Virus record (IMG/VR): IMGVR_UViG_3300045988_174371
Location: 192,001 to 256,000 of that record
DNA length: 64,000 nt
Origin: a virus
Strand: one strand, 5' to 3'
Under the pieces are notes generated by a model, which was given only the letters and a program-made list of their open reading frames with translations, made no database searches and had not been told where the DNA came from. Below, piece by piece: positions 1 to 64,000 of the stretch (within the stretch, counting starts at the first letter, position 1; every line of letters starts with the position of its first letter). Both the position numbers and the translations under genes were made by a program.

Positions 1-399
1 TGGTCGTTCTTCGGCAAGTCGCATGAGCCCAAGGAGCCATGCCTTGACCTTGGTGGTGAGTCGTTTATTCCCTCCGGTATTTGGGTAGAGGTCTACCATT
101 CCCATAAGGTCTACGCTTATGCCGTTGCCTACTAGCGAGGTTGCGACGTTCCTGTAGGCGCTAATGGCATTGATTGCGTCTTCTTTGCTGACCCCGGCGA
201 CGCGGCGCGCTTCATTTGCGGCGACATCCATTAAGTCGTCATGCTTGATGCGGTAGTATTCGCCGCGCTGTTTCGTGTTCATCTTGTAGATGCGCAGAGG
301 AAGTTCCATCTCTTCGGGCTCGGGCTCCCATCTGTGCTGGTTGTTTAGGAGCGCGTTCTCTACGATGGTATACCCGTAGGGGTTTCGTTTGCGTGGCAT
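1..399 (-). CDS. hypothetical protein, N-terminal 133 codons only (gene continues past the left edge); weak HU/IHF-like stretch
   Basis: Own translation of the minus strand from ATG (399-397) stays open to position 1: MPRKRNPYGYTIVENALL...GVSKEDAINAISAYRNVATSLVGNGISVDLMGMVDLYPNTGGNKR. An AGGAA SD-like motif lies ~8 nt upstream. Absent from the supplied track because it is truncated. Confidence 0.4.
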   Translation of the reverse strand, partial: MPRKRNPYGYTIVENALLNNQHRWEPEPEEMELPLRIYKMNTKQRGEYYRIKHDDLMDVAANEARRVAGVSKEDAINAISAYRNVATSLVGNGISVDLMGMVDLYPNTGGNKRLTTKVKAWLLGLMRLAEERP

Positions 400-420
400 A
401 ATAGGTTTCCTGTCCGTCGG

Positions 421-1014
421 CTAGTGGTGCTGGTCAAGTATCTTGTAGGAGGTGATTCCGTACTTGATGGCGCAGTCGATAGCGTCTATGACCCTGTTTT
501 CGATGAATTGCTCTACTTCTTCGGCGGGGGTTACGAGTTTCTTCCCGCGTTCCGGCTTGTCCTTGGTCAGGTTGAGAGTGTTATGGTTCCAGTGAATCCA
601 TTGCCCCTTGGTAAGTTTCTGCCACTGCTTGATGGTTGGGACGATGTATTTCGTTCCGTCGTGTTCGTAGGTGGGCTCTTCTAGACCTGGGAGGGATAGC
701 GGGGCGGGTTGCCCGCTGGTATCTTGCTTCCCTACTGGGGATTCTGTTGCGAACCGGACATGGACGTTTTTGGAGTTGGCGGTAAGGTTAGGGTCATTAC
801 TGTAGATGCGCAGAGCTTCAAGAGCTTGCGCTTGCGCGTCTTTCTTAAGTTTCTTCATTCGAAGGATTTGTTCGTGCTGTGGGTCGTCACTCTTAGCACT
901 TGGGGGCAAGAGGTTGTAGATGCTTTCCTTGTGGTGCGCGAAAAGTCGGTCAAAGGTTGCCTCTAGGGTGTCTTTGATGGGGGTAATGCGGAGCGTTAGC
1001 GTGGTGGTAGTCAT
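421..1014 (-). CDS. hypothetical protein (197 aa)
   Basis: Longest ORF at this locus, co-oriented and tightly spaced with the neighbouring minus-strand genes. Overlapping plus-strand ORFs look like shadow frames. No motif recognised. Confidence 0.5.
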   Translation of the reverse strand: MTTTTLTLRITPIKDTLEATFDRLFAHHKESIYNLLPPSAKSDDPQHEQILRMKKLKKDAQAQALEALRIYSNDPNLTANSKNVHVRFATESPVGKQDTSGQPAPLSLPGLEEPTYEHDGTKYIVPTIKQWQKLTKGQWIHWNHNTLNLTKDKPERGKKLVTPAEEVEQFIENRVIDAIDCAIKYGITSYKILDQHH

Positions 1015-1113
1015 GCCTGCCTTGTGCCTTATCTTTTGTGTGGGGCTAGTATTGCTGTAACAGGTACATTCTAATGTGTCGCAGGTTATAGTTCAAGGCG
1101 GTTTGGGCATAGT

Positions 1114-1151
1114 TTAGGGGACGCGCAAGAATTTTCTTGCGCGTCCCCTAA
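1114..1151 (-). terminator. perfect 16-18 bp palindrome downstream of the Rad50-like gene
   Basis: TTAGGGGACGCGCAAG-aatttt-CTTGCGCGTCCCCTAA. It lies ~200 nt after the stop at 1347. There is no clear U-tract, so it could also be a protein-binding palindrome. Confidence 0.45.
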
Positions 1152-1346
1152 GGTGCAGTTTCGGATGACCTGCTTTTCAGCTTTGCTGTGTGCTCTTAGT
1201 GCTTAGCGGGTTGTTGCATTGATGCTATTTCTATTCCCCAGGTACGAGCTTGTCGTTCTTGCGGGGCTTGGTTGGCAACTTTCCCGTTTGTATCTGATGA
1301 GCCGCTTTGTAGGTTTCATCCTGTATGCATTTATTATAGCAGAGTG

Positions 1347-3617
1347 TTAGCCAAGTTCCACTCGGTAGTCTGCTACAGCGTCCACCGTGTCGTTGTGCGC
1401 GATGATAAGAATCTGTTGCGCGTTCATGATGCTACGGATGGTTTTAATGGTGGCATCCATGTTCCTTGGGTCGTATGCGGTGAATGCTTCGTCCAGGATT
1501 AGGGTGCTGGTTGTTCCGCCGAACACCTTTGCGATTCCCAAGCCGATTGCCAGCGATACTGCGGACAGCTCGCCGCCGGAGAGTAGTTGAACTTCGCGAG
1601 TCTTGCCGTTGGCAAAGTGTGCGAGGATTTTAAACTCTTCGGTTATGGTGATACCGATAATTGTTCCGTTGGTGAAGCCAGCGATGAGCTCGGATGCGAA
1701 CTGGGTTAGTCGCGGGATGGCGGTGGCGGTGACTGCTTTGCGGAACTCTTTGAGGGTAGCCTCGGCATAGTGGATGCTTTCCTTCTCTAGGAGGAGGGAA
1801 GCATATGCTACTGCGTCTTCCTCTTCTTGCTTGAGCTGGGTTGCTAGTCTTGCATGTTCAGTTGCAACACGGGTATGTTCCGTGTTGGTATTCTGACCGT
1901 TAGAGGTGTTTTCGGCTATCTTCTTGTCCAGGGTGGCGAGTTGTTCCTTGGCGTTGGCTAGGGCGTGCTCGGTGACGTTTGGGGTGTTTGTAATGGTTTC
2001 CTTGAGGGAGTTCATCTTGTCGTTGAGCGAGGCGATGGAGTTCAACATCTGTTGTTTCACCTGGTTCTGGTTGCCCAGTTCGCGGGTGAGGTTTTCAATT
2101 TCCTTAGCGTCATTGTAGACGTTAAGGGCTGAGTTGTATTCTTCCTCCGCCTTGGCATAGTTCCGCTTAGCCTTGGTGAGTTGCCTCTTTGTGGTTTTAA
2201 GGCTCTCGGTTGCCTCCTTTTCTGCTTGGTAGGCATCTAGAATGTCTAGCGCTTGTGCGATGGAGCCGGTTAGCGCGGTTAGACTCTCTTGTGCAACTTC
2301 GCGGGCTTCCAGCTTTTCCGCCAGCTCATCCTTTAGGGAGGCTATAGTCTCAGCCAGCGGCTTGAGAACTGCTTCCTTGTTCTTGATGATTTGCTGGCAG
2401 GTGGGGCAGGTTCCACTGAGATTAGCTATTTCATTGTAGCTACGCTCAGCTTCAGGTAGTTTAGCCTGCTGGATGATGCTAATACGCTCATTGAGGGAGT
2501 GGACTGCGCTTTTGAGCTGTACTTCCTGCTCGGATTGCTCCCTGTGGGCATCCTGCGCCTCCTCCGCACTCTTATACGGGTTATTCTCAGTGAGAGTGTT
2601 TTTCGCACGGTTGAGCTTGTCCTCCAGGGAGGCTATGGCACTCTCTAGAGTGGTTTGATTCACACGGGCATCTTGTAGTGCTTCAAGCTTCTGCTGGTAT
2701 GCGGCTTCTACAAGCTGGTAATCTAACGCTACACCCTTACCGCCTGTGATACGCAGTTCCAGCTCCTCAGCGGCTTTCTGAGCCTGCTTGAGGCGTTCCT
2801 TGGCTTCGTTGCGGCGCTCCTCTACATTGGCGAGGTTCGACTTGGCGGTAGTTAGGGTCATGTAGTTCTGTTGAAGCTCAGAAACCTTAGCAGTAAGAGC
2901 TGTCCTTTGAGCCATTAGGCTCCTATACATCTCCCGCTGAGCGGTTAGGGACTCAAACAGCTTCAACTCTCGCTCCGCAAGGTCGGCTACGATTTTCCTG
3001 TGCGCGTCAAGACCTGCCCTGTCCACAGTTTTGCTGTCAAGCTCACGCTTGTTAATGCGACGGTGGATGCCACATTCTTCTAGCGCTTGAGAGTTAGCGG
3101 TAATGCCTGTGAGCTGTTCGATGATGTCGCGTCGAACTTCCGGCTTGGAATTGATGAATCTATCCGTTTCTTTCTGACGGAAGAAGACGGTGTTCATAAA
3201 GATGCTTTCGCCTACACCGAGGGTGCGGATGATTGCCTTGGTACCGTCACCTACGGAAGGTCCTGCAATATGGTGAGTGGAACCGTTATCTTCAATCTTC
3301 TCTAGGGTGACCTGCGTAGTACCCCTATAGTTCATAGTTCGGGTGGCAGTGTATGTTTCGCCGTCTACTTTGTAGGTTACTTTGACGGAGGTGGGCTCAT
3401 TTTTCGGGGTACCTTCTCTTCGAAGGTCGAGGTTACGGGTGATGTCTGCTGGGCGGGTTCCGTATAGAGCCCAAGGTACAGCATTGACGATAGTTGATTT
3501 CCCTGCGCCGTTGCCGCCGGTAATATGAGTGATACCGCTTTCCGGGAACGTTTCCGTGAAGTATTTGTGACTACGGAGGTTATGGATTTCTATCGTCTTA
3601 ATGGTTAGTGAAGTCAA
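1347..3617 (-). CDS. sbcC: SbcC/Rad50-family SMC-like ATPase with zinc hook
   Basis: N-terminal Walker A ITGGNGAGKSTIV. Long heptad-rich coiled-coil middle with a central CxxC hook (GTCPTCQQ). C-terminal signature LLSGGELSAVSLAIGL and Walker B TLILDEAF. Confidence 0.85.
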   Translation of the reverse strand: MTSLTIKTIEIHNLRSHKYFTETFPESGITHITGGNGAGKSTIVNAVPWALYGTRPADITRNLDLRREGTPKNEPTSVKVTYKVDGETYTATRTMNYRGTTQVTLEKIEDNGSTHHIAGPSVGDGTKAIIRTLGVGESIFMNTVFFRQKETDRFINSKPEVRRDIIEQLTGITANSQALEECGIHRRINKRELDSKTVDRAGLDAHRKIVADLAERELKLFESLTAQREMYRSLMAQRTALTAKVSELQQNYMTLTTAKSNLANVEERRNEAKERLKQAQKAAEELELRITGGKGVALDYQLVEAAYQQKLEALQDARVNQTTLESAIASLEDKLNRAKNTLTENNPYKSAEEAQDAHREQSEQEVQLKSAVHSLNERISIIQQAKLPEAERSYNEIANLSGTCPTCQQIIKNKEAVLKPLAETIASLKDELAEKLEAREVAQESLTALTGSIAQALDILDAYQAEKEATESLKTTKRQLTKAKRNYAKAEEEYNSALNVYNDAKEIENLTRELGNQNQVKQQMLNSIASLNDKMNSLKETITNTPNVTEHALANAKEQLATLDKKIAENTSNGQNTNTEHTRVATEHARLATQLKQEEEDAVAYASLLLEKESIHYAEATLKEFRKAVTATAIPRLTQFASELIAGFTNGTIIGITITEEFKILAHFANGKTREVQLLSGGELSAVSLAIGLGIAKVFGGTTSTLILDEAFTAYDPRNMDATIKTIRSIMNAQQILIIAHNDTVDAVADYRVELG

Positions 3618-4753: not shown

Positions 4754-6118
4754 CTAGTGGCGGTTGATGCTCTCTGAGCGGCGCACCCGGTAGTTTTCCG
4801 CAAGCTTCTTCTTGTAGCTATTGGGGATGTCGCGCAGGGCAATGAGGTCTGCGGTAGCTCCGCTGGTTACAAGGGCTGAGAGGCAGTCTTCCGTCGTATT
4901 GATGTCGTCTAGCTGGATGCCGGTGTCGAGGATAGCTAGAAGCATGTCTGTTGCCGCTTCCATATCTCGAACGTTGGACTTGGCTGGGTCTAGATGATGC
5001 GTGATACGCTCTTGCCCGTTATCTTTCCAGGTGAGCTCTTCCACTGTCCGCATTTTCACCCAGTTTTCGTTGGATTCCTTGTGGCTGAGGTATTCAGCCA
5101 ATGGTATCTCCATCTGCTGAGCGAGCTCTTCGTCGGTGTACCTGTGACCTTGGGGGTTGCCGTGCTTCTGGTTAAGCTCTTTGATTGCGCGTTTTCGGTT
5201 GCGCTGGAAGTTTGCCAGTGGCGCACCTAGGATATGCGTGGGCAGGTCGTTTACCCAGTTTGGGGCTGAGGATGCTAGGTAAGCGGCATAGGGTACGCCG
5301 CCAGACTCGTTGTACTTTGCGTATCCTTCGGCGGCGATTCCCACGTAGTAGGCGGCTTGCTCTTCAGGGTTCTTCCCTAGTAGTACGTTTACTGTCTCGC
5401 GGTGGCTGGGTGAGATTAGCCCCTGCACGAACATGCCGTAGAACTCGATAAGTCCGCCGTAGAACTCTTGAGGAACGTCGGTACCTTCGCGGCGGAATAC
5501 TGGGTATGCGACGCGGACAGGTTCGGGGGCGTTGTGCGCTTCGGCAATGTCTTTCATGATGGTGTACGCGGGTTCGGGAGTTGCGGCGCGTACAACGATT
5601 CGCCCGTCTCGCCCGGTGGTAACGATGCCAATTCCGGCGAGAGCTTCTTGAAGCTCCTTATATACACCGTTCGCGTCCTTGAGCGTCAGGTTTGCGACTG
5701 GGCGTAGGGGGGCGAGCTGAAAGCCTTCCGTTTCGGTTAGTCCACCGTAGAGGCGGGTGGGTAGGTTTTTGTCGATGAGCTTTAGCCCTAGCCGTAGCTT
5801 AGGCTCATCTTTTTGTCGCTCTGTAAACCACTCTTCGATTGCTTTACCTGTCATTGCGTAGGAGCTTCCGTTTGGGGACTTGTACGCTTTTTTCTCAGCA
5901 ACGAGGCTTTCTAGCCAACTGGTAGCTTCATCCAAGATGTTCGGATTGGCTTTCAACTCCTTCTTGGTGAGGGTTGTTTCGATAAGCTTTTCTGGGGTTA
6001 TCCAGATGCCGTCGCTGACGCGGATAGCCCATCTTTCTTGGATGGGGAATGCGTAGAACTGCGCATTAGTGTAGTAGGGCTTGAGATTAACGAGGCAGTG
6101 GTTGTACTTTTCTACCAT
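4754..6118 (-). CDS. hypothetical protein (454 aa); C-terminal half weakly sigma-70-like
   Basis: Long ORF in the operon. The stretch GIAAEGYAKYNESGGVPYAAYLASSAPNWV...RAIKELNQKHGNPQGHRYTDEELAQQMEIPLAEYLSHKE resembles sigma regions 2.x and 3.0 in pattern only. Confidence 0.5.
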   Translation of the reverse strand: MVEKYNHCLVNLKPYYTNAQFYAFPIQERWAIRVSDGIWITPEKLIETTLTKKELKANPNILDEATSWLESLVAEKKAYKSPNGSSYAMTGKAIEEWFTERQKDEPKLRLGLKLIDKNLPTRLYGGLTETEGFQLAPLRPVANLTLKDANGVYKELQEALAGIGIVTTGRDGRIVVRAATPEPAYTIMKDIAEAHNAPEPVRVAYPVFRREGTDVPQEFYGGLIEFYGMFVQGLISPSHRETVNVLLGKNPEEQAAYYVGIAAEGYAKYNESGGVPYAAYLASSAPNWVNDLPTHILGAPLANFQRNRKRAIKELNQKHGNPQGHRYTDEELAQQMEIPLAEYLSHKESNENWVKMRTVEELTWKDNGQERITHHLDPAKSNVRDMEAATDMLLAILDTGIQLDDINTTEDCLSALVTSGATADLIALRDIPNSYKKKLAENYRVRRSESINRH

Positions 6119-7779: not shown

Positions 7780-9267
7780 TTACGCCTTGTCGGTAGGGGT
7801 TCCACTATTCGCGCCCACGTATCGGTATACCTTGTACTTCTGCCCGAGCAGGTCAGTAAGGTCTTCCGACCAGCGGTATTCGATGGGGTGGATAGCGCCT
7901 ACTTCGTTGCGCCATGAGCCCTGCGCCACTGAGGGCTTGCCGTCATGGTCGCCAATGAATATGGCGGTATGACCGGCTGTGCCGCCGGGTCCACCTGCGA
8001 TGAGGATGTCGCCGGGTTGCAGGTCGGAACGTTTGCCGGTTACGTCTTTCCAGTCCGAAGACTGTGCGTAGTATTCCGCCTGTTGCCCAGTTGCACCCCA
8101 AGGAACCTTAGGGTCTACCGTGTTCTTCACGACGGTTGCGACGAAGCGGTCGCATGAGGCGTATAGGGCTTCCGCTCCAGGGCGTTCAGTGTGGGTGTCC
8201 TTGCCGCCCTTTTCTTCTGCCTTTTTCTTGGCTTCTTTGTAGGCTGGCTTTGCATTTTCTACCCCGTCGGGGTCTGCGTCGGAGACCGGGATTCGCTTTG
8301 CTTCGTCTGGCTTGTTGGAGTCCCATGCGATGCTCTTTGCGAGTTCTACGATGCCGGACATGTCTGCGCTGGATTCGCCGCCGAGGAAGCATGAGCCGCC
8401 GCCCTTGGAGAGGGAGGAGCTACCGCTAGACTTCATGCCGGGCTTGAAGTCCTTGATGAAGTCTTCACCGAAGGCGATACGGCGAGGCATGTTGGGGTGA
8501 CCTGAGCGTTCGAACTTGTTGTTGAAGATGGCGACAAGTTCAGCTACGCTCTTGGAGTCGTCTGCGAAGCCGCTTGCGATGAGGTTTGCGCCTTCGCCGC
8601 CTTCGAGCTCCTGCTTCAGGAAGTCCATCTGCGTACCAAGGTCAGACCAGTGGGAGTTATTAGCTTTGGCGAAATTTACAAGGTTGATGCGGCGGTCGCC
8701 GTCCCACTGCGCAAAACCAATAGCTTTACCGGAAACGTTACCTTGCGCAAGAATTTCGTCATTGCTCATTTTGGAGTTCAGCCCGGAGCCGCCCTGAGTG
8801 AGTTCGGAGTTGAACCCGGACTCCTGCCCAAAGTTTCCCATTAGCCCGGCTATCATTTTGGTGGTGAATGGTTTGTTTCCCCATTCACCACCGAAGGTGG
8901 TTGATGATAGCCAGGTTGCGACGTTTTGGACATTTTCGGCTGGGTCTTCGCTGTGTTTCAGCCCCGATTTGCTTTTGCCGCTGTTCTGGCTGATGCCGTA
9001 GCACCCGTCAGCATTATCATTTTTACCCCACACCTGGGCGGCTGGGATGCCGGTGACCAGGAGTAGGATGAAGAGTGCGATAATGCCTAGGATTACCCAT
9101 GTGGCTGGGTTGGTGAGGGTGGATACGGTTGCTGTGGTTGCGGCACTAACGTTCTTTGCCGTCTTGACGGCTTTCTGTGCTGTTTCTGCGGTCTTCACAG
9201 CCTTGTCTGCCACTGTTTCCCGTGCTGGGGTATTTGGCGGCTGTGTGGGTTCGTTATTGGCTGTCAT
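7780..9267 (-). CDS. bifunctional cell-wall hydrolase (phage-tail-lysozyme-like domain plus NlpC/P60- or CHAP-like peptidase), T4SS-associated
   Basis: N-terminal TM. Lysozyme-like block MIAGLMGNFGQESGFN...AIGFAQWDGDRRINLVNFAK...QMDFLKQELEG. C-terminal Cys/His peptidase pattern (ASCDRFVATVV ... GHTAIFIGDHDG). Confidence 0.75.
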   Translation of the reverse strand: MTANNEPTQPPNTPARETVADKAVKTAETAQKAVKTAKNVSAATTATVSTLTNPATWVILGIIALFILLLVTGIPAAQVWGKNDNADGCYGISQNSGKSKSGLKHSEDPAENVQNVATWLSSTTFGGEWGNKPFTTKMIAGLMGNFGQESGFNSELTQGGSGLNSKMSNDEILAQGNVSGKAIGFAQWDGDRRINLVNFAKANNSHWSDLGTQMDFLKQELEGGEGANLIASGFADDSKSVAELVAIFNNKFERSGHPNMPRRIAFGEDFIKDFKPGMKSSGSSSLSKGGGSCFLGGESSADMSGIVELAKSIAWDSNKPDEAKRIPVSDADPDGVENAKPAYKEAKKKAEEKGGKDTHTERPGAEALYASCDRFVATVVKNTVDPKVPWGATGQQAEYYAQSSDWKDVTGKRSDLQPGDILIAGGPGGTAGHTAIFIGDHDGKPSVAQGSWRNEVGAIHPIEYRWSEDLTDLLGQKYKVYRYVGANSGTPTDKA

Positions 9268-38461: not shown

Positions 38462-38502
38462 CTACAGGTAAAGGTTATAGAACCTATATAGCGGGCGGCG
38501 GC

Positions 38503-38661: not shown

Positions 38662-38704
38662 ATTAAAACCTCCTATGATGCTTATAGCTAAGTAAAGTCG
38701 CCAT

Positions 38705-40114: not shown

Positions 40115-40121
40115 TTTAAGG

Positions 40122-40973: not shown

Positions 40974-41072
40974 TTGATATGTGCGTTAAACCCGCTAATG
41001 CCTCACGGCATCGCCCGAGGAGTTAGCGGCAGAAAGCACGACAAAGCAACCTCACGAAAGGAACCCCGCCAT

Positions 41073-43976: not shown

Positions 43977-44107
43977 AAAACCTCCGCCAAGCTCAGGCGC
44001 GCAATAATCGTTTAATCAATCCATCCCACACCCCGAAACTCCCAAACGTTTCACGACGCAAAAGCCAGCAATATAGCCAAGCCAGAGGAAGAAAAGGTAA
44101 ACAAAAT

Positions 44108-44142
44108 GGGTGTGGCGACGGTAAAACACCGCCACCACACCC
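44108..44142 (-). terminator. candidate terminator
   Basis: GGGTGTGGCGACGGT-5 nt-ACCGCCACCACACCC (13 of 15 paired), ~50 nt after the stop at 44192. Confidence 0.4.
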
Positions 44143-44191
44143 ATAGCAAAGGTGCATAGCTAAACAGCTAGATTACCTAACGGTAAACCCG

Positions 44192-54526: not shown

Positions 54527-55756
54527 TTAAATTTTGGTTCGACGCAACCGAGTCTGAGTCTTCTCATCAAGCTTCGGCTTCACCTGGTAGATTCTCTCTG
54601 CCATTTGAACAAGGGGAAGAGCCTTTGCAGACTTACCCACTGCGCTACCATTAACGATACCAACATCAAGATAGCGAGTAGGATTACCTTGAGCATCGAG
54701 AGGGGAATCTGGCATCGCCAGCGTAATGTTACGCTTGTCTGCGGGGCATGTGTTACCTACATCCATTAGGATAGGGATAACGCCAGGCGGTGTGCGGGAG
54801 ATGACCTTATCGAAGAGCCACGGCTCAACAGGTTTCCCTGCATAGGTAAGTCGTCGAGACTTTACCTTATCCCCAAAAAGACCGACCTTTTCTTCCAATA
54901 CGAAGGATGTTTCCATCTTTACGGGGAAGAATAGGTATGCCCTCTGCCCTACCACGAAGACCGGCGCCGGAGCGCCATTGCGAGGCGCAGTATAGGGGTA
55001 GTAGTACCATTCAGAGTCGTACTTATTCTTATGCTCCTCATTTAGGAGCGCGGCTTCTTCCTTGACTTTCTTCTCCAAATGCTTAGGCTGTACGAACACT
55101 GGCATCTTCGCGCGCCAGTAGAACATCTTAACGCCGTAGCGATACCACAAAGAAGAAATGCCCACAGAGAGAAGCATTAGAACGCCGCCACCAAGAGCTG
55201 GGTTTAGCGTAGAAGCCGTCGTGATAACGCCAGCAGTAGTAGCGAGAACGGTCACCCACGGCTGATGCGTCCAACGGGACACCCCATAAACTCCGAACAA
55301 GGAGATGGTGTATGAAATTCCTAGAGCCAGCAGTGGGGAGAAACCTGCGAAGAACTCCCAGCCGCTATACGGCGAAGCGAAAACCGCCACATCATGCATC
55401 GTCACCATACAATAACCAACAATGGTTAATGTCACAAGAACTTTAATGATGACGACGGAACGGCTCAGCACGAACAGGAACCCGGCAGACACCACGAGCC
55501 AGACCCACGGAGCCCACCAAGACAACCCCTGAATACGGGATGAGACAATAGAGAGGAAGAGCGTAATCGAAACAGCGGGAAGTGCGAATCGCCCATACGA
55601 GCCTTCCAGGAACTCTACAAGCCACTTACTGAGCCTGCGGAACGCTGAAATGCACCTGTCTCTAAATGTCTTCTTCACCCCATCGCTGGAACTTTCAACC
55701 GTATCACCTGTAGAAATGTCCACAAGGGATTCCTCAGCATTAGCTTTCTTCTTCAT
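54527..55756 (-). CDS. polytopic membrane protein with soluble C-terminal domain (409 aa)
   Basis: ~7 hydrophobic spans in residues ~50-230, then a ~180-aa soluble domain. The start overlaps the MazG-like stop by 17 nt. Confidence 0.5.
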   Translation of the reverse strand: MKKKANAEESLVDISTGDTVESSSDGVKKTFRDRCISAFRRLSKWLVEFLEGSYGRFALPAVSITLFLSIVSSRIQGLSWWAPWVWLVVSAGFLFVLSRSVVIIKVLVTLTIVGYCMVTMHDVAVFASPYSGWEFFAGFSPLLALGISYTISLFGVYGVSRWTHQPWVTVLATTAGVITTASTLNPALGGGVLMLLSVGISSLWYRYGVKMFYWRAKMPVFVQPKHLEKKVKEEAALLNEEHKNKYDSEWYYYPYTAPRNGAPAPVFVVGQRAYLFFPVKMETSFVLEEKVGLFGDKVKSRRLTYAGKPVEPWLFDKVISRTPPGVIPILMDVGNTCPADKRNITLAMPDSPLDAQGNPTRYLDVGIVNGSAVGKSAKALPLVQMAERIYQVKPKLDEKTQTRLRRTKI

Positions 55757-56498
55757 TCGTCACCCAGCTTCCCATATGCTTAGTCTTGCCACCTTCAAGT
55801 ACCGGAGCAAGATTCGGAGGGACGAAGTTCTCGCCTTTAAGAATTTTTCCATCCTCACGGTAGATAGGCTTGCCGTCAGCCCCCAACTTCGTCATATTAG
55901 ACGCATGGATTTCCTGGTTCACATGCTCCAACGGTACACCCATAGCAACAAACGTGCCGGTGTTAATGTACCGGATGTCACCCAGCGCATCAAGGATAGC
56001 CAGCTTATCTACAGGAAGCTCATCAAGGGGCTTCGCGCCAACGATAGCGTTCAACGCCGCCTTGAAAATCATAAACGCTGGCATCAAAGCAGACTTAACA
56101 GCCTCCTTATTCTGCACATCACTGGACTCAGCCGCAACATCCAGCACCACGTCGAGAAGAGGGACGACAGACTTCAATGCGCTTTCAAGAGACTCTCTGT
56201 TGATGGAAAGCTCCTCAAGAGACTTCGCCTGAACAATAAAATCAAGGCAAGCCTCAAAAAGCAGAGCCATCGGATTGCCGAAAATACCTTCAGTTAGTTC
56301 CCCAGACTCCTCACCATGCAAGGTGTAGCGGCGAACTAGTTCACGCTTGCCCTCGACGCTTTCCAAATCGATAGGGTTAGTGAACCCATTCTGATGCCCG
56401 AACGTATCATGAAACTGGCGCAATGCGCGAGACTCATACTCTTCACTAGGGTGAATCTTCGGGGGAAGCGCGGGAATTTCGAACTTAGACATATTCAT
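55740..56498 (-). CDS. MazG-like nucleoside triphosphate pyrophosphohydrolase family protein
   Basis: GEESGELTEGI (E-x-x-E metal motif). C-terminal EIHASNMTKLGADGKPIYREDGKILKGENFVPPNL is typical of phage or all-alpha NTP-PPases. Confidence 0.55.
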   Translation of the reverse strand: MNMSKFEIPALPPKIHPSEEYESRALRQFHDTFGHQNGFTNPIDLESVEGKRELVRRYTLHGEESGELTEGIFGNPMALLFEACLDFIVQAKSLEELSINRESLESALKSVVPLLDVVLDVAAESSDVQNKEAVKSALMPAFMIFKAALNAIVGAKPLDELPVDKLAILDALGDIRYINTGTFVAMGVPLEHVNQEIHASNMTKLGADGKPIYREDGKILKGENFVPPNLAPVLEGGKTKHMGSWVTNEEES

Positions 56499-56649: not shown

Positions 56650-57549
56650 CTAGCTAAACTGCTCAGTGGAGAAGAACTCCACATTCTTAGCCTGGCTAAA
56701 CTCGTCAGGCAATGAAAGCACACGCGGAACAACGAAGGTCTCAGAGCCGTCAGTTGCGCTTACCGCAACGTCCTTAGAGTCATTGCGTACATGCCAGTGA
56801 CCATGAACAAGTACGCGCGGCTTCGCGGCAACAACCGCATCTGCAATATTAGCGCGGCTCCGCTCCGCTCGGGCAAGCACTCTAGCCGGAACATTACTCA
56901 GGGAGCTCTGTACGCGGCTCTGGGGCACTGGCGCAGTCGGCGGCGCATCATGTGTCAGCATCATATCAACGACCCCTCCAAGGCGCTCTACGCCGCCCTT
57001 AACTCGCTGAACATCTTCAGTGGTGACCTGCTCGTTGATAGACCAATAACGGCGCATCTGCTCAAACTCAATATTGATACTTCCAGCGCCACCACAAGCC
57101 AAGAAGCTCATGCCTCGCTTACCGCCAGCGGTACCTAGGCGGGCAGTAGCGCCTCGCGTCGCCCAAACCACACGGGGAGTGATGAAGACAAAGCCGTCCT
57201 CATTCGCGGTATCGCGCAAATCATTTAGACCTGCGCGAGTCAAGACAGCATCGCTAGAATATGCTGGGGTTCCAGAGGAAGCATACTGCTCATGATTACC
57301 ATCAATGAAGAGCACAAAATAATCATGTAACTTAGCACGATTCGTAATCATAGAAACATACTCTTCATACCCAGGCAATGACGGGTAGTAGCCAAAATCA
57401 CCCACATGCAGAATGACATCCACGCCCTTACTCTCCACGTAGGTAAGCACCTTATTCACGCGCTCCGTATTCATATGCCAGTCTCCGGCAACAGCAACGG
57501 TCTTAGCATTAGCTAGATGCTCATAGAAATTCTCCATACATTTCTCCAT
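56650..57549 (-). CDS. calcineurin-like metallophosphoesterase
   Basis: VAGDWH, HVGDFGY, DGNHE, LTHDAP, VHGHWH. Confidence 0.7.
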   Translation of the reverse strand: MEKCMENFYEHLANAKTVAVAGDWHMNTERVNKVLTYVESKGVDVILHVGDFGYYPSLPGYEEYVSMITNRAKLHDYFVLFIDGNHEQYASSGTPAYSSDAVLTRAGLNDLRDTANEDGFVFITPRVVWATRGATARLGTAGGKRGMSFLACGGAGSINIEFEQMRRYWSINEQVTTEDVQRVKGGVERLGGVVDMMLTHDAPPTAPVPQSRVQSSLSNVPARVLARAERSRANIADAVVAAKPRVLVHGHWHVRNDSKDVAVSATDGSETFVVPRVLSLPDEFSQAKNVEFFSTEQFS

Positions 57550-57574: not shown

Positions 57575-58840
57575 TTATAGTGATGCGTTCTTCTCGAAAA
57601 CTCGTTCTTCGCCGCGCTTCAGATAAGCCTCTGCAAGGTCAGTAGCTCTCTTACGCGCTTCCGGGTCAGCAATGCTATTCAGAGTCTCTGAGCGTTCCGT
57701 CCAGGCGTGGTAAGCCGCGCCCAGACCACCACCCTGAATGAGCGGGATGTCTACAGCATCATCTTTCACCTCGGCTTCGGAAGGTAGCTTCTCTTCTTTT
57801 GCCGCGCGTGGCGCAAGGTTATAAGAGAGTGCAAACTTCGACGCATCATCGATAAGAGTCTGGTCGCGCGCGGCAAACACGGAAGGGGTAGCCCCAAATA
57901 CGCGCTGACGCAAGATAGGCGCATTAGCAGGGTCGTACTCAAGACCCTCACTAGCAGGCGGCAAATTCGCCAAAATAGCCTCAGTGAGCGCCACAGAATC
58001 AAGACCCTCAGCATAGATGGGCGGCAAATCCTCCTGAGGGCGCTGACGGACGTTCTTCATCTCACGAGTAACGGAGCCGTCCGGCGCAATATGCCACAGC
58101 GTATAGCCGCGCCCAAGAGCGCCCTTCGCATCAGCGAAGCCGCGCCTAATTAGTGAGCCGTTATAGAAGATGCCGCTATGTTCATCGCCAACAAAGCCGC
58201 GCTCATGAATATGCCCAAGCATCATCGCATCCCAACCCGCATAAAGGAACGAGTCAGGAATAACTACCTCGCGCACAGTATCATTTACGCGGATACGCTC
58301 TTTCAACAAAGGGTCAATGAGTGAGCCGTGCGTCGTAAGGATATTGATAGCCCCCTTAACCGGCTCGACCTTCTTCATCACATCTACACTCTCTGTGTAC
58401 ATGTGATGACTCACCATATGTAGGGCAATATCATCGTTAATGTGATACAGCTGGTAGGGGTTAGCGTGAGAGTAGATGCCCATCTGCGGTAGATGCAAGT
58501 TCCTTGTAAACGCAACATCACTCTTTACGTCGTTCACGTCATGATTTCCCGTAATGTTGTAGACAGGGATTCCTGCCTCAGCAAGCCGCATCAGTCCAAG
58601 ACGCATATGCAGGCGAGCACGGTCGGACGGGTTCGGCTCATGCCCAATATCGCCAGCAATGACTACGGCATCCACTTCATCAGCGATAATGCCATCGATA
58701 GCTTCTTCCCATGCCAGGTAGCCGTCAAGCTCACGTAGCGGGATAAGCATCCCATCGTCGGGGTCTTCGCCTAGGCGGTTCAAAGACGAGTTATCGCGGT
58801 ACCCTAGATGCAGGTCTGATAGATGAGCAATCGTAAACAA
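57575..58840 (-). CDS. sbcD: Mre11/SbcD-family nuclease
   Basis: AHLSDLHLGYR, VIAGDIGH, ITGNHD, TTHGS, LGHIHERG. Confidence 0.75.
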   Translation of the reverse strand: MFTIAHLSDLHLGYRDNSSLNRLGEDPDDGMLIPLRELDGYLAWEEAIDGIIADEVDAVVIAGDIGHEPNPSDRARLHMRLGLMRLAEAGIPVYNITGNHDVNDVKSDVAFTRNLHLPQMGIYSHANPYQLYHINDDIALHMVSHHMYTESVDVMKKVEPVKGAINILTTHGSLIDPLLKERIRVNDTVREVVIPDSFLYAGWDAMMLGHIHERGFVGDEHSGIFYNGSLIRRGFADAKGALGRGYTLWHIAPDGSVTREMKNVRQRPQEDLPPIYAEGLDSVALTEAILANLPPASEGLEYDPANAPILRQRVFGATPSVFAARDQTLIDDASKFALSYNLAPRAAKEEKLPSEAEVKDDAVDIPLIQGGGLGAAYHAWTERSETLNSIADPEARKRATDLAEAYLKRGEERVFEKNASL

Positions 58841-59268: not shown

Positions 59269-61308
59269 TTAGAGACCAGCCATCAACGCATACTCTTCCA
59301 TCATATCCACCATAAGAGCAACCATAGCGTCAGCATCACCAGTAGCTCGAATATGAGCCATACGCGCATTGAACGCCTCGACAGATGAGCGAGCATCTGG
59401 AACCTCAGCGTTATGCAGTGGCTCTAAGCGCTGGCACACCAGCCAGCCTCGCTTCAACGACTCACGAGACACGGGCGTACCTGAAAGCCCACCTCCATTA
59501 GAGTTACCCTCAGCCGAAGCCACAGACTGACCATTAGAGTCAGTGGAAGCATCGCTGGAATCAGATACAAAGGTGCGCTCAGGCACCTCAGTAATCACAA
59601 GGTTATTCTTCTTACCCAAGAAAGCAAACGCCTTATACGCATCGTCATAGTCCGTAATGTTATCACGGAAAGACTTCGCATCCTCAGCCGCCCAAGCAGT
59701 AATAGAAGCCATAATCCTAACCGACTCCTCATCCACCTGCCAAGACTTCGGGTTAGAACCCAAAATGTAAGCAGTATCAAGACGGCGCACACGTGAAAGT
59801 GCCACATAGCCCAGCCCCTCAGTAAACGAAGAACTCAGGTCTAGAACAGCTCCATCATAGGTCTGCCCCTGAGACTTGTGAACCGTAATCGCGTAACCAG
59901 GCTTCAGAGGGAACATTGAACTATGCGCATAGGAAGAGCTAACCCACTTACCGTCATCTTTCTGGATTGGGCGTTCAAGGGTGCTCTCCTCATTTACAAC
60001 AAGGAACAGCCCATCACCGAACTGGACAACAGGCGAAACATCCGCAGACTTAGGAATGTCGGCAACAGACTCGTAATAGTCTTCACCATCAACTGTCGCG
60101 AAAGCCCTCACGTACCCCATAGAGCCATTGGTGATTTTAGTGGTGGAATCCGTAATCCAGAAATTGCGGGCAATATTCTCGTCGTCAGCCCTGCCTCCGT
60201 AGAACGCCGCGATAGGCATGTCAGCAACAACTTTAGTGCCAATCTTCAGCTCAATCTCATGCTCAGCTCTATTCTTTAGGGACTTCCACTGAGCCTTCTG
60301 CGTGGGAGTGAGCGTATCCTCAACGGTCATCAACGCGGCATCTGACTTGAAGATAAGAGATTCGCCCTCTAGTTCAGCAATGCGCTTCGCATTATGCTGA
60401 GCAACCTCAATATTGCGGGTGTAGATGCGGATAGTAGGCTCCGCATCCTTACCATGCTCCTTGTCAAGCCTATCAGCTTCCTCGGGAGTGATGGAGCGCT
60501 TGGCTAGGCTATTAAAATCTTCCGTGGTCAAGGAGTTAGAAGACATATGCTTGATGATGCGCGCCAGCTCAGGGTCAGTGGCACGGTGAGCCTCGGTAAG
60601 GAAGCAGTAGCGGAAGCCAGCATCTTCCCAAGCGGGGGTGCTAAATGGGAAGCCTGAATAATGTTTGCCCTGAAAGTCCCTATCAGGAACAGCCTTGAGC
60701 TGATTAAAGTCGCCTACCGCAACAATCTGAAGTCCGCCGAAAGCCTTGTCGCTCTTGCGGATACGACGCAAATATGCGTCCATCTCCTGCCATAGCTGAC
60801 CGTAAATCATAGAGACCTCATCAATAATGAGGACATCAATCTCACGCAGTCGCTCTGACTTGTGGAAGACATACGAAGGGTTGCCGTCTGCATCCCAATG
60901 CTTGCTCTTACCTACACCAAAGAGGCTATGAATAGTCGCTCCCTTGATGTTTTCTGCCGCCGCGCCAGTAGATGCAGTAACCTCATACTTGACGTTATGC
61001 ATATCGAACACTCGGCAAGCCAGGTGCACGATAGAGCTTTTGCCGGTTCCAGGCCCACCGGCAATAAATACGTTCTCGCCTACAAGGATTCGGGTAAGCG
61101 CCTCAAACTGACTGGTTCCCTTAGCGCTATTAGCCGCTTCCAGAGCGTTAGCAAACCCAAGATAAAGCTCGTTGTCGCCGCCGTCAGAGCCTACAAGCCG
61201 GGCGTATGCCTCCTGGAAGTTAAGCTCTTCAACCTCAGCGAGAAGAGGAAGTCGAGACTTATTCGCCTCGGCTGAAGGAATCTGCTTGTCCTTCTTGCTT
61301 TTAGTCAT
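59269..61308 (-). CDS. RecD/Pif1-like SF1B helicase
   Basis: FIAGGPGTGKSS (Walker A), LIIDEVSMI (Walker B), VGDFNQLKAV, ITVHKSQGQTYD, GYVALSRVRR. Confidence 0.8.
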   Translation of the reverse strand: MTKSKKDKQIPSAEANKSRLPLLAEVEELNFQEAYARLVGSDGGDNELYLGFANALEAANSAKGTSQFEALTRILVGENVFIAGGPGTGKSSIVHLACRVFDMHNVKYEVTASTGAAAENIKGATIHSLFGVGKSKHWDADGNPSYVFHKSERLREIDVLIIDEVSMIYGQLWQEMDAYLRRIRKSDKAFGGLQIVAVGDFNQLKAVPDRDFQGKHYSGFPFSTPAWEDAGFRYCFLTEAHRATDPELARIIKHMSSNSLTTEDFNSLAKRSITPEEADRLDKEHGKDAEPTIRIYTRNIEVAQHNAKRIAELEGESLIFKSDAALMTVEDTLTPTQKAQWKSLKNRAEHEIELKIGTKVVADMPIAAFYGGRADDENIARNFWITDSTTKITNGSMGYVRAFATVDGEDYYESVADIPKSADVSPVVQFGDGLFLVVNEESTLERPIQKDDGKWVSSSYAHSSMFPLKPGYAITVHKSQGQTYDGAVLDLSSSFTEGLGYVALSRVRRLDTAYILGSNPKSWQVDEESVRIMASITAWAAEDAKSFRDNITDYDDAYKAFAFLGKKNNLVITEVPERTFVSDSSDASTDSNGQSVASAEGNSNGGGLSGTPVSRESLKRGWLVCQRLEPLHNAEVPDARSSVEAFNARMAHIRATGDADAMVALMVDMMEEYALMAGL

Positions 61309-61355: not shown

Positions 61356-62273
61356 TTACATGCACAAAGCGAGGCAGAAACGCTTAAATTCTTCCACCGT
61401 ATACGACCTGTACGGGTTGCGAAGAAAGCTCTGTAGGTCGTTCGCAATAGCTAGTATACCTTGAAGTTTCACTCTTCGCGACAGATTGTAGGGCTCTTTA
61501 AGTGACCAGGTACTTCCACCTAGAGCTGTAACTACGTCACTGAGCTTAGCTTCAGGATGAACTTCAAGATAAGAGGCAACCCTCAAAGTGTCTGAAATCT
61601 TACTTTTCAGGACAGCTACAGGGAATGTTGCCCCGCTACCTGCCCTGTCAATAATGCTGTTCACTCGCGCAATGTCCTTCTTCACGAGAGCATCTAGAAT
61701 GTCCCAAGGGGCGCGAGTCCCAGGCTCCATCGGAATGTAACGGTCTACATCGTGAATCGTCAGTTGCTTCTTCTCTTCATCAGAAATAGTCGCAACAAAG
61801 TCGAGGAGCCTGACAATGAGCCTCAGCTCCTCCCCTGCATGTTCAGCCATGAAGTTAATAACTGGACGAGGAAGACCTGCTTTCTCAAGCTCATGACGCA
61901 CACGGTTCTTGGAAGCGGTGGGCTTGATGACCGTGACCCCCATCTTCTCCGAGCTCTTCAGGATACCTCTCAGTGAGTTTAGTGGGGCACCTGTAGAAAT
62001 GATAAGACCACCCCAAGGTTCAGTCCTGCAATTCTGCAAGGTCTTCACCGCAACCTCAGCATCCTGCTTCAACGGACAAGACACAGAATAGACGTGAACG
62101 CCACCAAAAAGGTCTACAGCGGTAGCTTCTCGAACTGCCGAGACAAGCACCGAATCGCCACCCGTCTTGGCGCGCATCTCACGCCTAACCTTACGGACAA
62201 GATAATCACGGAAAGCGTCGTTAGGCTCAGCGATAAAGACTACCCGCTCAAATTTACGAGCCAACAGAATCAC
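61356..62273 (-). CDS. DNA polymerase III delta subunit (HolA)-like
   Basis: ~300 aa. INFMAEHAGEELRLIVRLLDFV...LTIHDVDRYI...PWDILDALVKKDIARVNSII follows the layout of delta domains II-III. Pattern-level only. Confidence 0.45.
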   Translation of the reverse strand: MILLARKFERVVFIAEPNDAFRDYLVRKVRREMRAKTGGDSVLVSAVREATAVDLFGGVHVYSVSCPLKQDAEVAVKTLQNCRTEPWGGLIISTGAPLNSLRGILKSSEKMGVTVIKPTASKNRVRHELEKAGLPRPVINFMAEHAGEELRLIVRLLDFVATISDEEKKQLTIHDVDRYIPMEPGTRAPWDILDALVKKDIARVNSIIDRAGSGATFPVAVLKSKISDTLRVASYLEVHPEAKLSDVVTALGGSTWSLKEPYNLSRRVKLQGILAIANDLQSFLRNPYRSYTVEEFKRFCLALCM

Positions 62274-62947
62274 CTATCCTTCACTGTAGGGGACGCGCCA
62301 TGCGCCTTAACCGAACTGACCTGAACTAGGACAGCTGAGCTATCATCAGTTTTTCCACTACATAGAACACTTAAAGAGTCCAGGGAATTACTCCGGTTGT
62401 CACCTAGTAGGAACAGTTCACCAGCGGCAAGAGTATGTTCGTATGCCTCCGTTTTACAGGTGGGTAGAACATCAGTAACCTGCACACCGTTTACATGGAC
62501 AGCCCCGGCAACAACCGACACCGTATCACCTTCAGTGGCGGCTACACGCTTCACTACAGCGCCTTGCGTGGCAGAGGCATACTGCCACGCTGTAGGCATC
62601 TCAGCTACCACTATGTCGCCCCTGCGGATAGGGGAGCTCTGGTCGTTCTCAAACAATAGAACTTGACCATCCGCATAAGTGGGGAGCATTGAATCGCCAG
62701 CAACTCGATACTGAGTAACAGTCGGCGCTACCTTGCTAACGATGGCATCAGGGGTTACTCCACTCTGGTACGCCATATACCCCACGCCTGAGACAGTAGC
62801 CGCGCCAGTCAGAAAATAAGCCAAGAAACGCGGGAAACGGCGACACCTACGCACCTTCACATATTCCGTATCAGGTGGTGGCGGCGCTGACACGGCAGAA
62901 GCTCTAATTGAGCTCATCATATCTGACGATGAGAGGCGGTTAGGCAT
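62270..62947 (-). CDS. signal peptidase I (S26 family; LepB/TraF-like)
   Basis: N-terminal TM. VAGDSMLPTYADGQ (Ser box), VVKRVAATEGDTV (Lys box), LLGDNRSNSLDS. Overlaps the holA-like start by 4 nt. Confidence 0.75.
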   Translation of the reverse strand: MPNRLSSSDMMSSIRASAVSAPPPPDTEYVKVRRCRRFPRFLAYFLTGAATVSGVGYMAYQSGVTPDAIVSKVAPTVTQYRVAGDSMLPTYADGQVLLFENDQSSPIRRGDIVVAEMPTAWQYASATQGAVVKRVAATEGDTVSVVAGAVHVNGVQVTDVLPTCKTEAYEHTLAAGELFLLGDNRSNSLDSLSVLCSGKTDDSSAVLVQVSSVKAHGASPTVKDR

Positions 62948-62967
62948 ATGGAGAAAATCCCTTCAAG

Positions 62968-63594
62968 TTACTTACGCGATTTGCTTCGCGCATCTGCATT
63001 AAGCGCTGAACGCGCATTCTTATAGACTGCATCAGTAGTATTCAGCAGAGTTCGTTCATTATTAGTGAGTGAATTGATAGCGCTAACCTCACCACGGATG
63101 ATGTTCACCTCAGTAGAAGCAGTGCGCAATGCGTCGGAAGCCATAACCTTATCCACGGCATAACCTTTACAGCGTAGCGTTGCCAGCTCTTTAACCTCGG
63201 TCTCAGTCAGGCGGCGACCCCTGCCACCACCTTCAGCGGCTTCGTCGGTGGCGTGGACTCCAGTCCTCACCTCATGACAGGCGATATTGAACGCATTGTC
63301 GTAGGCGTATGCCGCCGCCGCATATTTACGCTTAGCGTGCATCTCTCGAAGTAGCGCCTCACGTAGCTTCTTCATATACTCAATAATCATTGACGAAAGC
63401 ACAGCTAGACTCTCCAAGTCACGCTCTTCAAGCTCTGCCTCAAGCTCCTCTACAGAGAACGTCGTATTGTTCTCCTCCTGCGCTTCAAGCGAGGACACAA
63501 TTTCATCGGCAGTAGATGCCGCGCCGTTAGCTGTACCGTATCCAGGGCGCGGCATATTGTAATGGGTTGCGCGCTTATCGTCGTTCTTCGACAA
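62968..63594 (-). CDS. hypothetical protein (208 aa), coiled-coil rich
   Basis: First gene of the minus-strand string, with a divergent intergenic region upstream. No motif recognised. Confidence 0.45.
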   Translation of the reverse strand: MSKNDDKRATHYNMPRPGYGTANGAASTADEIVSSLEAQEENNTTFSVEELEAELEERDLESLAVLSSMIIEYMKKLREALLREMHAKRKYAAAAYAYDNAFNIACHEVRTGVHATDEAAEGGGRGRRLTETEVKELATLRCKGYAVDKVMASDALRTASTEVNIIRGEVSAINSLTNNERTLLNTTDAVYKNARSALNADARSKSRK

Positions 63595-63643
63595 ATCTTA
63601 CTCCTCTAACCTAAGCGTAGGGGCGTAGTGCCTCTACGTGAGA

Positions 63644-63649
63644 TATAAT
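63644..63649 (+). promoter_or_regulatory. candidate -10 hexamer (TATAAT) for the plus-strand Tat-signal gene
   Basis: TATAAT lies 58 nt upstream of the ATG at 63708 in the 113-nt divergent intergenic region. No convincing -35. Confidence 0.2.
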
Positions 63650-63707
63650 GTACTAACTATTGTAACACCTGAGCAGGTGGTACACGACTGAAAGAAAGCA
63701 GGTAGGC

Positions 63708-64000
63708 ATGACTGAAAAGCAGACCAAAGCATCCCGTCGAGACATCCTCAAATTCCTTGGCGTAACTGCCGCCGCAGGCGCACTAGGTGGCGGCGCGGGA
63801 TATTTATTCGAACAGGTGAACCAAACTGAAACAAACGCACAAGCACGGAAAATTAGTGCCCCTAGCGAGTCTCAGGTAGCAGAGATTCGCCAGCAAAATA
63901 GTGAAAGTGCCAACATTACCCCGACACCCGCCCAACCATCACCTGTCGAAGCCACCGAAACCCCTAAGGCATACTTCGCGGAAACAAGCGGCGACATCGA
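63708..64000 (+). CDS. exported protein with twin-arginine (Tat) signal, N-terminal part only
   Basis: Own translation: MTEKQTKASRRDILKFLGVTAAAGALGGGAGYLFEQ... The SRRDILKF motif plus a hydrophobic core. The ORF runs off the right edge. Confidence 0.55.
   Translation, partial: MTEKQTKASRRDILKFLGVTAAAGALGGGAGYLFEQVNQTETNAQARKISAPSESQVAEIRQQNSESANITPTPAQPSPVEATETPKAYFAETSGDI

Follow-up and report, generated by a model that had tools for sequence, protein, structure and literature searches.

Giant extrachromosomal elements of the human mouth were recognised only in 2025 with the description of the Inocles (Kiguchi et al., Nat Commun 2025, PMC12340149), circular oral elements of 245-395 kb that were assigned to Streptococcus. 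Their G+C content is 32% in the alpha, beta and gamma types and 24% in delta, and they are recognised by the marker InoC, a single-copy protein of ~454 amino acids with an N-terminal Replic_Relax domain (PF13814) and DIAMOND matches at E<1e-10 to known InoC (PMC12340149). Here we describe a stretch of 64 kb (positions 192,001 to 256,000 of IMG/VR record IMGVR_UViG_3300045988_174371, “the window” in the following), which amounts to about one sixth of a circular element of ~360.6 kb from human oral metagenomes. We consider it likely that the window is a piece of a giant circular plasmid-like replicon of an oral actinobacterium, probably Rothia; a second family, unrelated-looking and in a different phylum, would thereby join the Inocles.

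The size and form of the element follow from two assemblies. The exact VirD4-type coupling protein of the window, an exact open reading frame (ORF) of 197 amino acids (421-1014) and the exact S26 signal peptidase are found on an oral contig of 360,715 bp (k127_64826 of ENA ERZ989713, assembled by MEGAHIT with k127), and an independent Joint Genome Institute (JGI) contig of 360,588 bp, Ga0557493_011585 of 3300053491, from another sample and another pipeline, carries the same genes. The difference between the two is 127 bp, exactly the MEGAHIT k-mer, which points to a circle of ~360.6 kb that was written out once with a terminal k-mer overlap. The two assembly sizes thus provide good, though indirect, support for circular closure. 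No contig beyond 1 Mb carried any of these three proteins. The cluster of RecA sequences at 90% identity holds 68 member sequences, from hundreds of contigs of which the longest measure 306-376 kb, and sister elements of 260-390 kb keep the same gene order at protein identities of 86% and 68-71% (RecA), 48-85% (a conserved ORF of 454 amino acids) and 38-76% (a Rep-like ORF). A megablast search of PLSDB with window positions 1-25000 gave no match, a scan of the 185,579 species genomes of GTDB with VirD4 and an alignment of the 454-amino-acid family found no relative, and the literature searched held no paper on a giant Rothia element. The family is common in public oral metagenomes, absent from PLSDB and GTDB and undescribed in the literature searched. 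Where it is filed at all, IMG/VR lists it as “viral”, and the oral “jumbo phages” of a 2020 preprint (10.1101/2020.07.06.186817) may include it.

Gene content was scanned over ~122 kb, made up of the window and its flanks (“the scanned region”), the flanks being followed outward along contigs that carry window proteins and then along IMG/VR contig 174689. This region showed no rRNA gene and, among its annotated ORFs, no housekeeping metabolism gene; the window contains no tRNA gene, its sole Rfam match being a lysM-Actino RNA, and the flanks gave no tRNA or Rfam match at all. The preliminary description of this DNA, made from its letters alone, had proposed a large accessory replicon with a type IV secretion system (T4SS) module and a private replisome, and had noted the lack of tRNA, rRNA and housekeeping metabolism genes, which extends to the whole scanned region. 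This proposal is supported by the size of the circle, by the missing tRNA and rRNA genes and by the absence from GTDB. The element is not a bacterial chromosome carrying its only copies of recA, ligA, dnaE and dnaX, the case that the same description had named as speaking against it.

With respect to the host, all named sequences among the best 120 RecA homologs belong to Rothia (74-80% identity; R. dentocariosa, R. aeria, R. nasimurium, R. endophytica, R. aerolata and uncultured Rothia), while the unnamed relatives with higher scores lie on sister elements. The element has a G+C content of 52-56%, with 50-57% across the window, which is just below that of Rothia genomes, and it shows further actinobacterial features in its lysM-Actino RNA, an Rpf domain and twin-arginine translocation (TAT) signal peptides. 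From the RecA relatives, the RNA, Rpf, the TAT signals and the base composition together, the host is most probably an oral actinobacterium of the genus Rothia and not Streptococcus.

Greedy ORF calling yielded ~49 plausible genes in the window, ~44 of them on the minus strand and ~19 without any family match. Assignments were judged by Pfam gathering scores and NCBIfam equivalog cut-offs, with PHROGs, PDB sequences and Rfam as further libraries. The features that concern replication, recombination and repair are the following:

1347-3617, minus strand: SbcC/Rad50-like ATPase (SMC_N, AAA_23, SbcC_Walker_B; Walker A motif GGNGAGKS)
21377-23131, minus strand: DnaG primase (Zn_ribbon_DnaG, DNAG_N, Toprim)
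24271-24327, plus strand: three copies of GGTTTTTYGGTAG, candidate iteron or operator (repeat count)
24737-27283, plus strand: protein with a predicted Rep-type initiator fold (AlphaFold2 model and Foldseek)
28693-30831, minus strand: LigA, NAD-dependent ligase (all LigA domains, E 4e-94)
38705-40114, minus strand: PD-(D/E)XK nuclease, Cas4/AddB-like (PDDEXK_1, E 5e-15; C-terminal cysteine cluster)
40965-42269, plus strand: RecA (Pfam, E 1e-136)
42389-42874, plus strand: RecX (E 6e-4, sub-threshold)
48824-51535, minus strand: C-terminal part of DnaE (Pfam, above gathering score)
51538-52827, minus strand: DnaX (passes Pfam DNA_pol3_delta2)
52843-54345, minus strand: N-terminal part of DnaE with PHP domain (Pfam, above gathering score)
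57575-58840, minus strand: Mre11/SbcD-like metallophosphoesterase (Metallophos)
59269-61308, minus strand: Pif1/RecD-like helicase (PIF1, E 2e-22; AAA_19, AAA_30)
61356-62273, minus strand: HolA-like clamp-loader delta subunit (TIGR01128, E 5e-6, 26 bits against a cut-off of 80)

Most of the gene names given in the preliminary description are borne out. Hidden Markov models (HMMs) support DnaG, LigA, RecA, the split DnaE, DnaX, the Pif1/RecD helicase and the Cas4-like nuclease, as well as the MazG- and NrdH-like proteins listed further below, and the same holds for the Mre11-like (Metallophos) and Rad50-like (SMC_N, AAA_23, SbcC_Walker_B) readings. HolA and RecX do find the expected matches, but these stay below the curated thresholds. 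DnaX also matches NCBIfam dnaX_nterm at E 9.5e-48 (163 bits, below the equivalog cut-off of 250). The genes had been described as lying on one strand, which is true of most of them but not of recA and recX. DnaB and partition genes, which had not been seen in the window, turn up in part just outside: beyond the left edge and on the same strand lie genes for SSB, a DnaB helicase (DnaB_C, E 9e-49), a RecG-like helicase, a ParA/AAA_31-like ATPase, a stand-alone AAA_10 ATPase and a T2SSE (VirB11/PilB-type) ATPase. To the right of the window follow a second sortase, a phage-type dNMP kinase (DNMK) and a CshA-repeat surface protein. A 408-amino-acid ORF that follows dnaB was considered as a beta clamp, for which no support was found.

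Together these genes cover most of a replisome, with the predicted Rep-type initiator, DnaB, DnaG, a two-piece DnaE, DnaX, the HolA-like protein, SSB and LigA, and a recombination and repair set of RecA/RecX, RecG, the SbcC/Mre11-like pair, the Cas4-like nuclease and the Pif1/RecD helicase. The gene dnaE is divided cleanly where position 100 of the palm-domain model DNA_pol3_alpha (Pfam) falls, and dnaX stands between the halves, an order (DnaE-N/DnaX/DnaE-C) that is kept in sister elements. The N-terminal half carries a tail of ~60 amino acids and the C-terminal half a head of ~25, and neither shows canonical intein residues. A split intein is disfavoured on these grounds, the translations having no canonical junction residues; tail and head may instead be a non-covalent docking module. 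A dnaE gene on a large plasmid is not without precedent, as tblastn found matches in 2,301 PLSDB records. The nearest phage or plasmid DnaE proteins, those of Streptomyces phages and of Amycolatopsis and Streptomyces plasmids, are only 35-37% identical, which indicates that the replisome as a whole is not a recent copy of host genes.

The ORF at 24737-27283 (848 amino acids) is a genuine gene, with homologs in 38 clusters that without exception come from giant contigs; it matches no Pfam family and no PDB sequence. An AlphaFold2 model built from 18 sequences contains a core of two tandem winged-helix units with a predicted local distance difference test (pLDDT) score of 60-85. When this model was compared with the PDB by Foldseek, the top 46 matches were without exception RepE54 of mini-F, Rep-DUE complexes or domains 2-3 of Vibrio RctB; the best 14 have E values of 2e-4 to 9.5e-4, most of the matches have probabilities of 0.94-1.00, and target TM-scores are 0.30-0.50. 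The protein is therefore predicted, from its modelled structure, to be a Rep-type initiator of the RepE/RctB fold. Three copies of the 13-mer GGTTTTTYGGTAG (0.10 expected by chance) stand 410-470 bp upstream of this gene in a non-coding stretch that is extremely rich in G and T, with nearly no C or A on the plus strand. They are kept in close relatives and are candidates for an iteron or an operator.

A peculiar property of the element is an extreme asymmetry of its strands, G+T against C+A, which changes sign abruptly at one place in the window. The features and the third-codon-position skews (GC3 and AT3) on either side of it are:

26137-26210, no strand: skew switch of terminus-type polarity, inside the rep-like gene
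20098-21303, plus strand: protein without assigned function, with a paralog beside a second skew switch (BLASTP)
Minus-strand genes left of 26.1 kb: GC3 skew -0.39, AT3 skew +0.27
Minus-strand genes right of 26.1 kb: GC3 skew +0.23, AT3 skew -0.58
Plus-strand genes left of 26.1 kb: GC3 skew +0.46, AT3 skew -0.70
Plus-strand genes right of 26.1 kb: GC3 skew -0.34, AT3 skew +0.09

Third-position skew thus follows location and ignores gene orientation, and an origin of the bias in transcription or coding was rejected for this reason. The bias has left its mark on the proteins, in which T, N, Q and K are abundant left of the switch and V, D, G and S right of it; Thr, Asn, Gln and Lys are enriched where the coding side is C/A-rich and Val, Asp, Gly and Ser where it is G/T-rich. 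The switch is kept inside the orthologous gene at 99%, 76% and 55% protein identity, although it lies ~150 codons earlier in the 55% ortholog. A second switch of opposite, origin-type polarity was found 66 kb away, outside the window (contig position ~221.8 kb), in a region of locally diverging genes; it is also kept in a sister element. Skew is strongest beside both switches and falls off over 10-40 kb. A recent inversion breakpoint does not account for the switch in the window, which sits in an intact gene and recurs in orthologs of 55-77% identity, and the idea is further disfavoured by a skew that peaks at the segment edges and is not uniform. At this 26-kb switch no DnaA boxes, actinobacterial dif consensus, tandem repeats or iteron-like repeats were found.

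The leading strand is usually the G/T-rich one, and by this rule the switch in the rep-like gene would be the terminus and the distant one the origin. Initiators of the RepE/RctB fold normally act beside their own gene. The first switch is crossed by ~100 kb of co-oriented genes, and whichever of the two switches serves as the origin, replication meets a minimum of 47 kb of genes head-on.

The surroundings of the second switch contain some unusual DNA. Beside it lies a tract of ~2.3 kb of almost pure C and A (GC skew -0.7, TA skew -0.87; ~139.9-142.3 kb of IMG/VR contig 174689), followed by A/G-rich DNA and then by the G/T-rich DNA at the switch. The tract can be read in a Pro/Thr-rich frame with G at first codon positions only, no canonical start and one in-frame stop; two repeats ~250 bp apart come after it, and the tract is kept in a sister contig. 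The protein at 20098-21303 and its paralog beside the second switch (L019:10586-11608) share 36% identity (BLASTP E 2e-29), and each gene stands a few kb inside its switch on the minority strand. A 567-amino-acid gene near the second switch was also considered, as Replic_Relax (nothing in Pfam even at E<=10) and as a paralog of the Rep-like protein (no similarity), and was dismissed in both roles.

A block of genes on the minus strand left of the primase gene resembles Gram-positive conjugation modules:

7780-9267, minus strand: secreted lysozyme-like cell-wall hydrolase (Phage_lysozyme2, E 1e-24)
9254-13117, minus strand: polytopic membrane protein of 1287 amino acids, VirB6/TcpH analog (NCBIfam CD3337/EF1877, E 4e-7, sub-threshold)
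14136-15644, minus strand: protein like the N-terminal half of VirB4 (partial TcpF/TraC/CD1110/TraC_F_IV matches)
16136-17362, minus strand: membrane-anchored protein at the position of TcpC (no library match)
17362-19953, minus strand: VirD4-type coupling protein (TraG-D_C, TrwB_AAD_bind, TraD/CD1115; Walker A)

The preliminary description had called all five as T4SS components, with differing outcome, and had noted that the proposal would suffer if they failed under HMM search. VirD4 passes with 37.7 bits for TraG-D_C (cut-off 22) and 33.1 bits for TrwB_AAD_bind (cut-off 20.5) and has the Walker A motif GSPGSGKT, and the muralytic hydrolase is above threshold as well. The VirB6-like and VirB4-like proteins do match the families concerned, but below threshold and, for VirB4, over the N-terminal half only: the alignment covers positions ~70-430 of the ~800-residue TcpF/TraC/CD1110 models (E 4e-7 to 9e-5), in a protein of 502 amino acids that has 503 in a sister element of 80% identity. 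The TcpC-like call found no support in Pfam, NCBIfam, PHROGs or PDB sequences. A very divergent T4SS could be assembled from the VirD4 coupling protein, the VirB4 N-domain protein, the VirB6/CD3337-like membrane proteins and the cell-wall hydrolases, and we infer that the element may spread by conjugation via such a Gram-positive-type apparatus.

Several genes in the flanks belong to the same subject. A stand-alone AAA_10 ATPase of 424 amino acids is encoded ~40 kb from the VirB4-like gene (128,232-129,506 of IMG/VR contig 174689). The polytopic membrane protein of 1287 amino acids (9254-13117) has a paralog of 1340 amino acids outside the window (L003:11430-15452; E 1e-13), and the two flank the SbcC gene. 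Both have long coiled-coil tails, with an additional Pro/Thr-rich tail in the smaller one, and after each comes a large peptidoglycan hydrolase, one of the two being lysozyme-like and the other M23; an M23 peptidase of 1158 amino acids is encoded beyond the left edge on the same strand.

That the window is part of a plasmid-like replicon has to be weighed against other explanations. It could derive from a jumbo phage or phage-plasmid of an oral actinobacterium, in which case the replisome, the dNMP kinase, MazG, NrdH and the lysozyme would count as phage modules beside incidental T4SS genes. IMG/VR indeed lists the element and one sister as viral (306,861 and 319,426 bp), the circular “jumbo phages” of >300 kb reported from the tongue dorsum in the 2020 preprint (10.1101/2020.07.06.186817) are rich in replication genes and glutaredoxin, private sets of DnaE, DnaX, DnaB and DnaG are typical of large phages, the nearest DnaE relatives include Streptomyces phages and the kinase in the flank is of phage type. 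However, Pfam found no capsid, portal, terminase or tail family in the scanned region, none of ten proteins without family matched any of the 38,880 PHROG families, and an initiator with the predicted RepE/RctB fold, a ParA-like ATPase, VirD4 within a canonically ordered set of T4SS-type genes, sortases and LPXTG proteins are not what this explanation would lead one to expect; the analogous Inocles, furthermore, were 16-fold enriched in the cell pellet (PMC12340149). On balance we regard a phage as rather unlikely. An integrated element, be it an integrative and conjugative element (ICE) or a part of a chromosome or chromid, is very unlikely in view of the dozens of independent contigs that end at 300-390 kb (two agreeing within k=127), the lack of any contig >1 Mb and of the family in every GTDB genome, and an own Rep initiator, DnaB and ParA-like gene, together with the lack of an integrase and of any rRNA, tRNA or housekeeping metabolism gene in the scanned region; in its favour one might cite a RecA homolog on a 633-kb contig and the Gram-positive ICEs that have the same T4SS gene set.

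It is extremely unlikely that the element belongs to the published Inocle family, whose G+C content of 32% or 24% is far from the 50-57% found here. PF13814 was detected neither in 11 members of the 454-amino-acid family (E<=10) nor in the ORFs scanned over ~122 kb, Inocle genes resemble those of Streptococcus where the RecA of the window resembles that of Rothia, the description of the Inocles names no RecA, ligase, primase or Rothia (PMC12340149), and the window does not contain the Inocle_004 primers. These differences stand against a common habitat (cohort PRJEB6997, the source of the 360,715-bp contig, was also used in PMC12340149), a size within the same range of 245-395 kb, a conserved 454-amino-acid ORF that equals InoC in length and a shared set of genes, i.e. 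VirD4/VirB4, the alpha subunit of Pol III, a RecD-like helicase, NrdH, a sortase, LPXTG proteins and an S26 peptidase.

Some observations also weigh against a self-replicating, conjugative plasmid of Rothia. Besides the viral filing in IMG/VR, these are gene-content scans that cover one third of the circle (all but ~240 kb), and a host assignment based on homology and composition and not on physical linkage. The model of the Rep-like protein has an overall pLDDT of only 52, and the sharp switch at 26,137-26,210, ~1.4 kb inside its gene, has converging polarity. As to transfer, neither a relaxase, which the preliminary description had also missed in the window, nor an oriT was identified in the scanned region (~100 ORFs scanned for families), and the VirB4-like protein lacks both a Walker A motif and an ATPase domain. 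The AAA_10 ATPase resembles stand-alone ATPases; its full-length relatives, from plasmids of Bacillus, Paenibacillus and Streptomyces, carry only the annotation “ATP-binding protein”. Against the 72,556 plasmids of PLSDB, VirD4 gave a single marginal tblastn match; with almost no detectable plasmid relatives, a transfer function is extrapolated from weak homology. Transfer (no relaxase, a VirB4-like protein without ATPase) and the location of the origin are the weakest links of the interpretation.

The other recognisable features of the window are:

4754-6118, minus strand: protein of the 454-amino-acid family, possibly a divergent sigma-like factor (weak Sigma70_r3, Foldseek)
23716-24069, minus strand: NrdH/glutaredoxin-like redoxin (Glutaredoxin, E 2e-11)
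27499-28281, minus strand: Rpf transglycosylase with LysM (Transglycosylas, LysM)
28282-28505, minus strand: lysM-Actino cis-regulatory RNA (Rfam RF03090, 156.5 bits, E 1.5e-38)
31888-35638, minus strand: triad of Ser/Thr kinase, PP2C phosphatase and vWA protein (profile matches; kept in sister elements)
35703-38461, minus strand: sortase and LPXTG (LPVTG) surface protein (Sortase match; LPVTG and C-terminal transmembrane segment)
42990-45275, minus strand: FtsK/SpoIIIE-domain gene (FtsK_SpoIIIE, E 3e-12) and two partial paralogs that look degenerate
55740-56498, minus strand: MazG-like NTP pyrophosphohydrolase (PRA-PH, E 1e-9)
56650-57549, minus strand: metallophosphoesterase (Metallophos)
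62270-62947, minus strand: S26 signal peptidase (Peptidase_S26, E 1e-20)

The 454-amino-acid protein has an N-terminal winged-helix-like region and ten homolog clusters (48-98% identity) on contigs of 266-376 kb. Weak Sigma70_r3 matches in 7 of 11 family members and best Foldseek matches to sigma factors (E 0.05-0.25) suggest that it may be an element-encoded sigma-like factor. An actinobacterial regulatory RNA, lysM-Actino, thus precedes the gene of the cell-wall resuscitation factor Rpf on a plasmid-like replicon. The order of the minus-strand block at 31888-40973 (kinase, PP2C, vWA, sortase, LPVTG protein, Cas4-like nuclease and a CAAX-type protease) is kept in sister elements, and we presume that its kinase/phosphatase/vWA triad resembles signalling or conflict triads. 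The FtsK/SpoIIIE gene (328 amino acids) is followed by ORFs of 187 and 183 amino acids that repeat its N-terminal region and look like degenerate tandem duplicates; sister elements have one gene of 330 amino acids and an ORF of 238.

Sortases, LPXTG proteins, the signal peptidase and Rpf make up a machinery for surface proteins. As a plasmid-like replicon, the element would persist as a giant plasmid of low copy number, initiate theta-type replication and carry out most of it by itself, see to the repair and recombination of its DNA, remodel the host envelope, and move between cells by its divergent T4SS. We offer only tentatively, as a possibility that we would not yet call probable, the more far-reaching view that all these traits define one undescribed, globally common family of circular elements of 260-390 kb in oral Rothia, with an initiator of the RepE/RctB fold, a near-complete replisome, a divergent T4SS and a non-standard mode of replication. 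If this were true, the strand bias peaking at two conserved points 66 kb apart, one of them inside the initiator gene and of terminus polarity, would be a footprint of replication, and might reflect strongly asymmetric replichores with a Rep-bound fork barrier, an inverted mutational polarity of leading and lagging strand, or frequent abortive strand displacement at two sites.

With a putative initiator, helicase, primase, polymerase, clamp loader, SSB and ligase, this would be the most complete plasmid-borne replisome documented in this analysis, and a test case for the independence of plasmids from their hosts and for the border with jumbo phages and chromids. The link to Rothia provides a culturable host genus that can be screened, and the conserved strand bias poses a testable question about replication.

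How does the element compare with systems already known? With DnaE-encoding jumbo phages and large plasmids of actinobacteria it shares a private polymerase and genes of nucleotide metabolism; it differs from them in a dnaE split around dnaX and in the combination of a Rep initiator with T4SS genes, no virion genes being found in the scanned region. The tandem winged-helix initiator fold is that of the iteron replicons of the RepE/Pi/TrfA type and of RctB of Vibrio chromosome 2, and here, too, short direct repeats (three) precede the gene. Yet the protein of 848 amino acids has long extra C-terminal regions and no detectable sequence similarity to those initiators, there is no clear iteron array, and the skew switch lies inside the gene and is of terminus type. 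Gene set and order of the putative transfer module are those of Gram-positive conjugation systems of mating pair formation (MPF) types MPF-FA/FATA, such as Tcp of pCW3 and the CD1110/CD1115/CD3337 genes of Clostridioides ICEs: a coupling protein, small membrane proteins, a VirB4-like protein, a large polytopic membrane protein and a peptidoglycan hydrolase. Here only the hydrolase and the VirD4 domains reach the cut-offs, all other matches falling far below them; the VirB4 homolog comes without its ATPase half, and no TcpC homolog or relaxase was found.

The closest parallel remains that with the Inocles. Oral habitat, circular form, size, a majority of genes without known function, switch points of GC skew and absence from reference genome collections are common to both, as are the VirD4/VirB4-type, polymerase, helicase, redoxin, sortase, LPXTG and S26 peptidase genes mentioned above. 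In contrast, the element described here carries RecA/RecX, LigA, DnaG, DnaB, SSB, DnaX and a HolA-like protein, none of which is reported in PMC12340149, and the parts examined show neither an insertion sequence (IS) element nor a tRNA and no change of gene orientation at the skew switch. From these differences and from the G+C content, the failure to find InoC/PF13814 in the scanned ORFs and the affinity to Rothia, all set against the published description of the Inocles, we infer that the element represents a separate family, which would be a functional and ecological high-GC counterpart of the Inocles.

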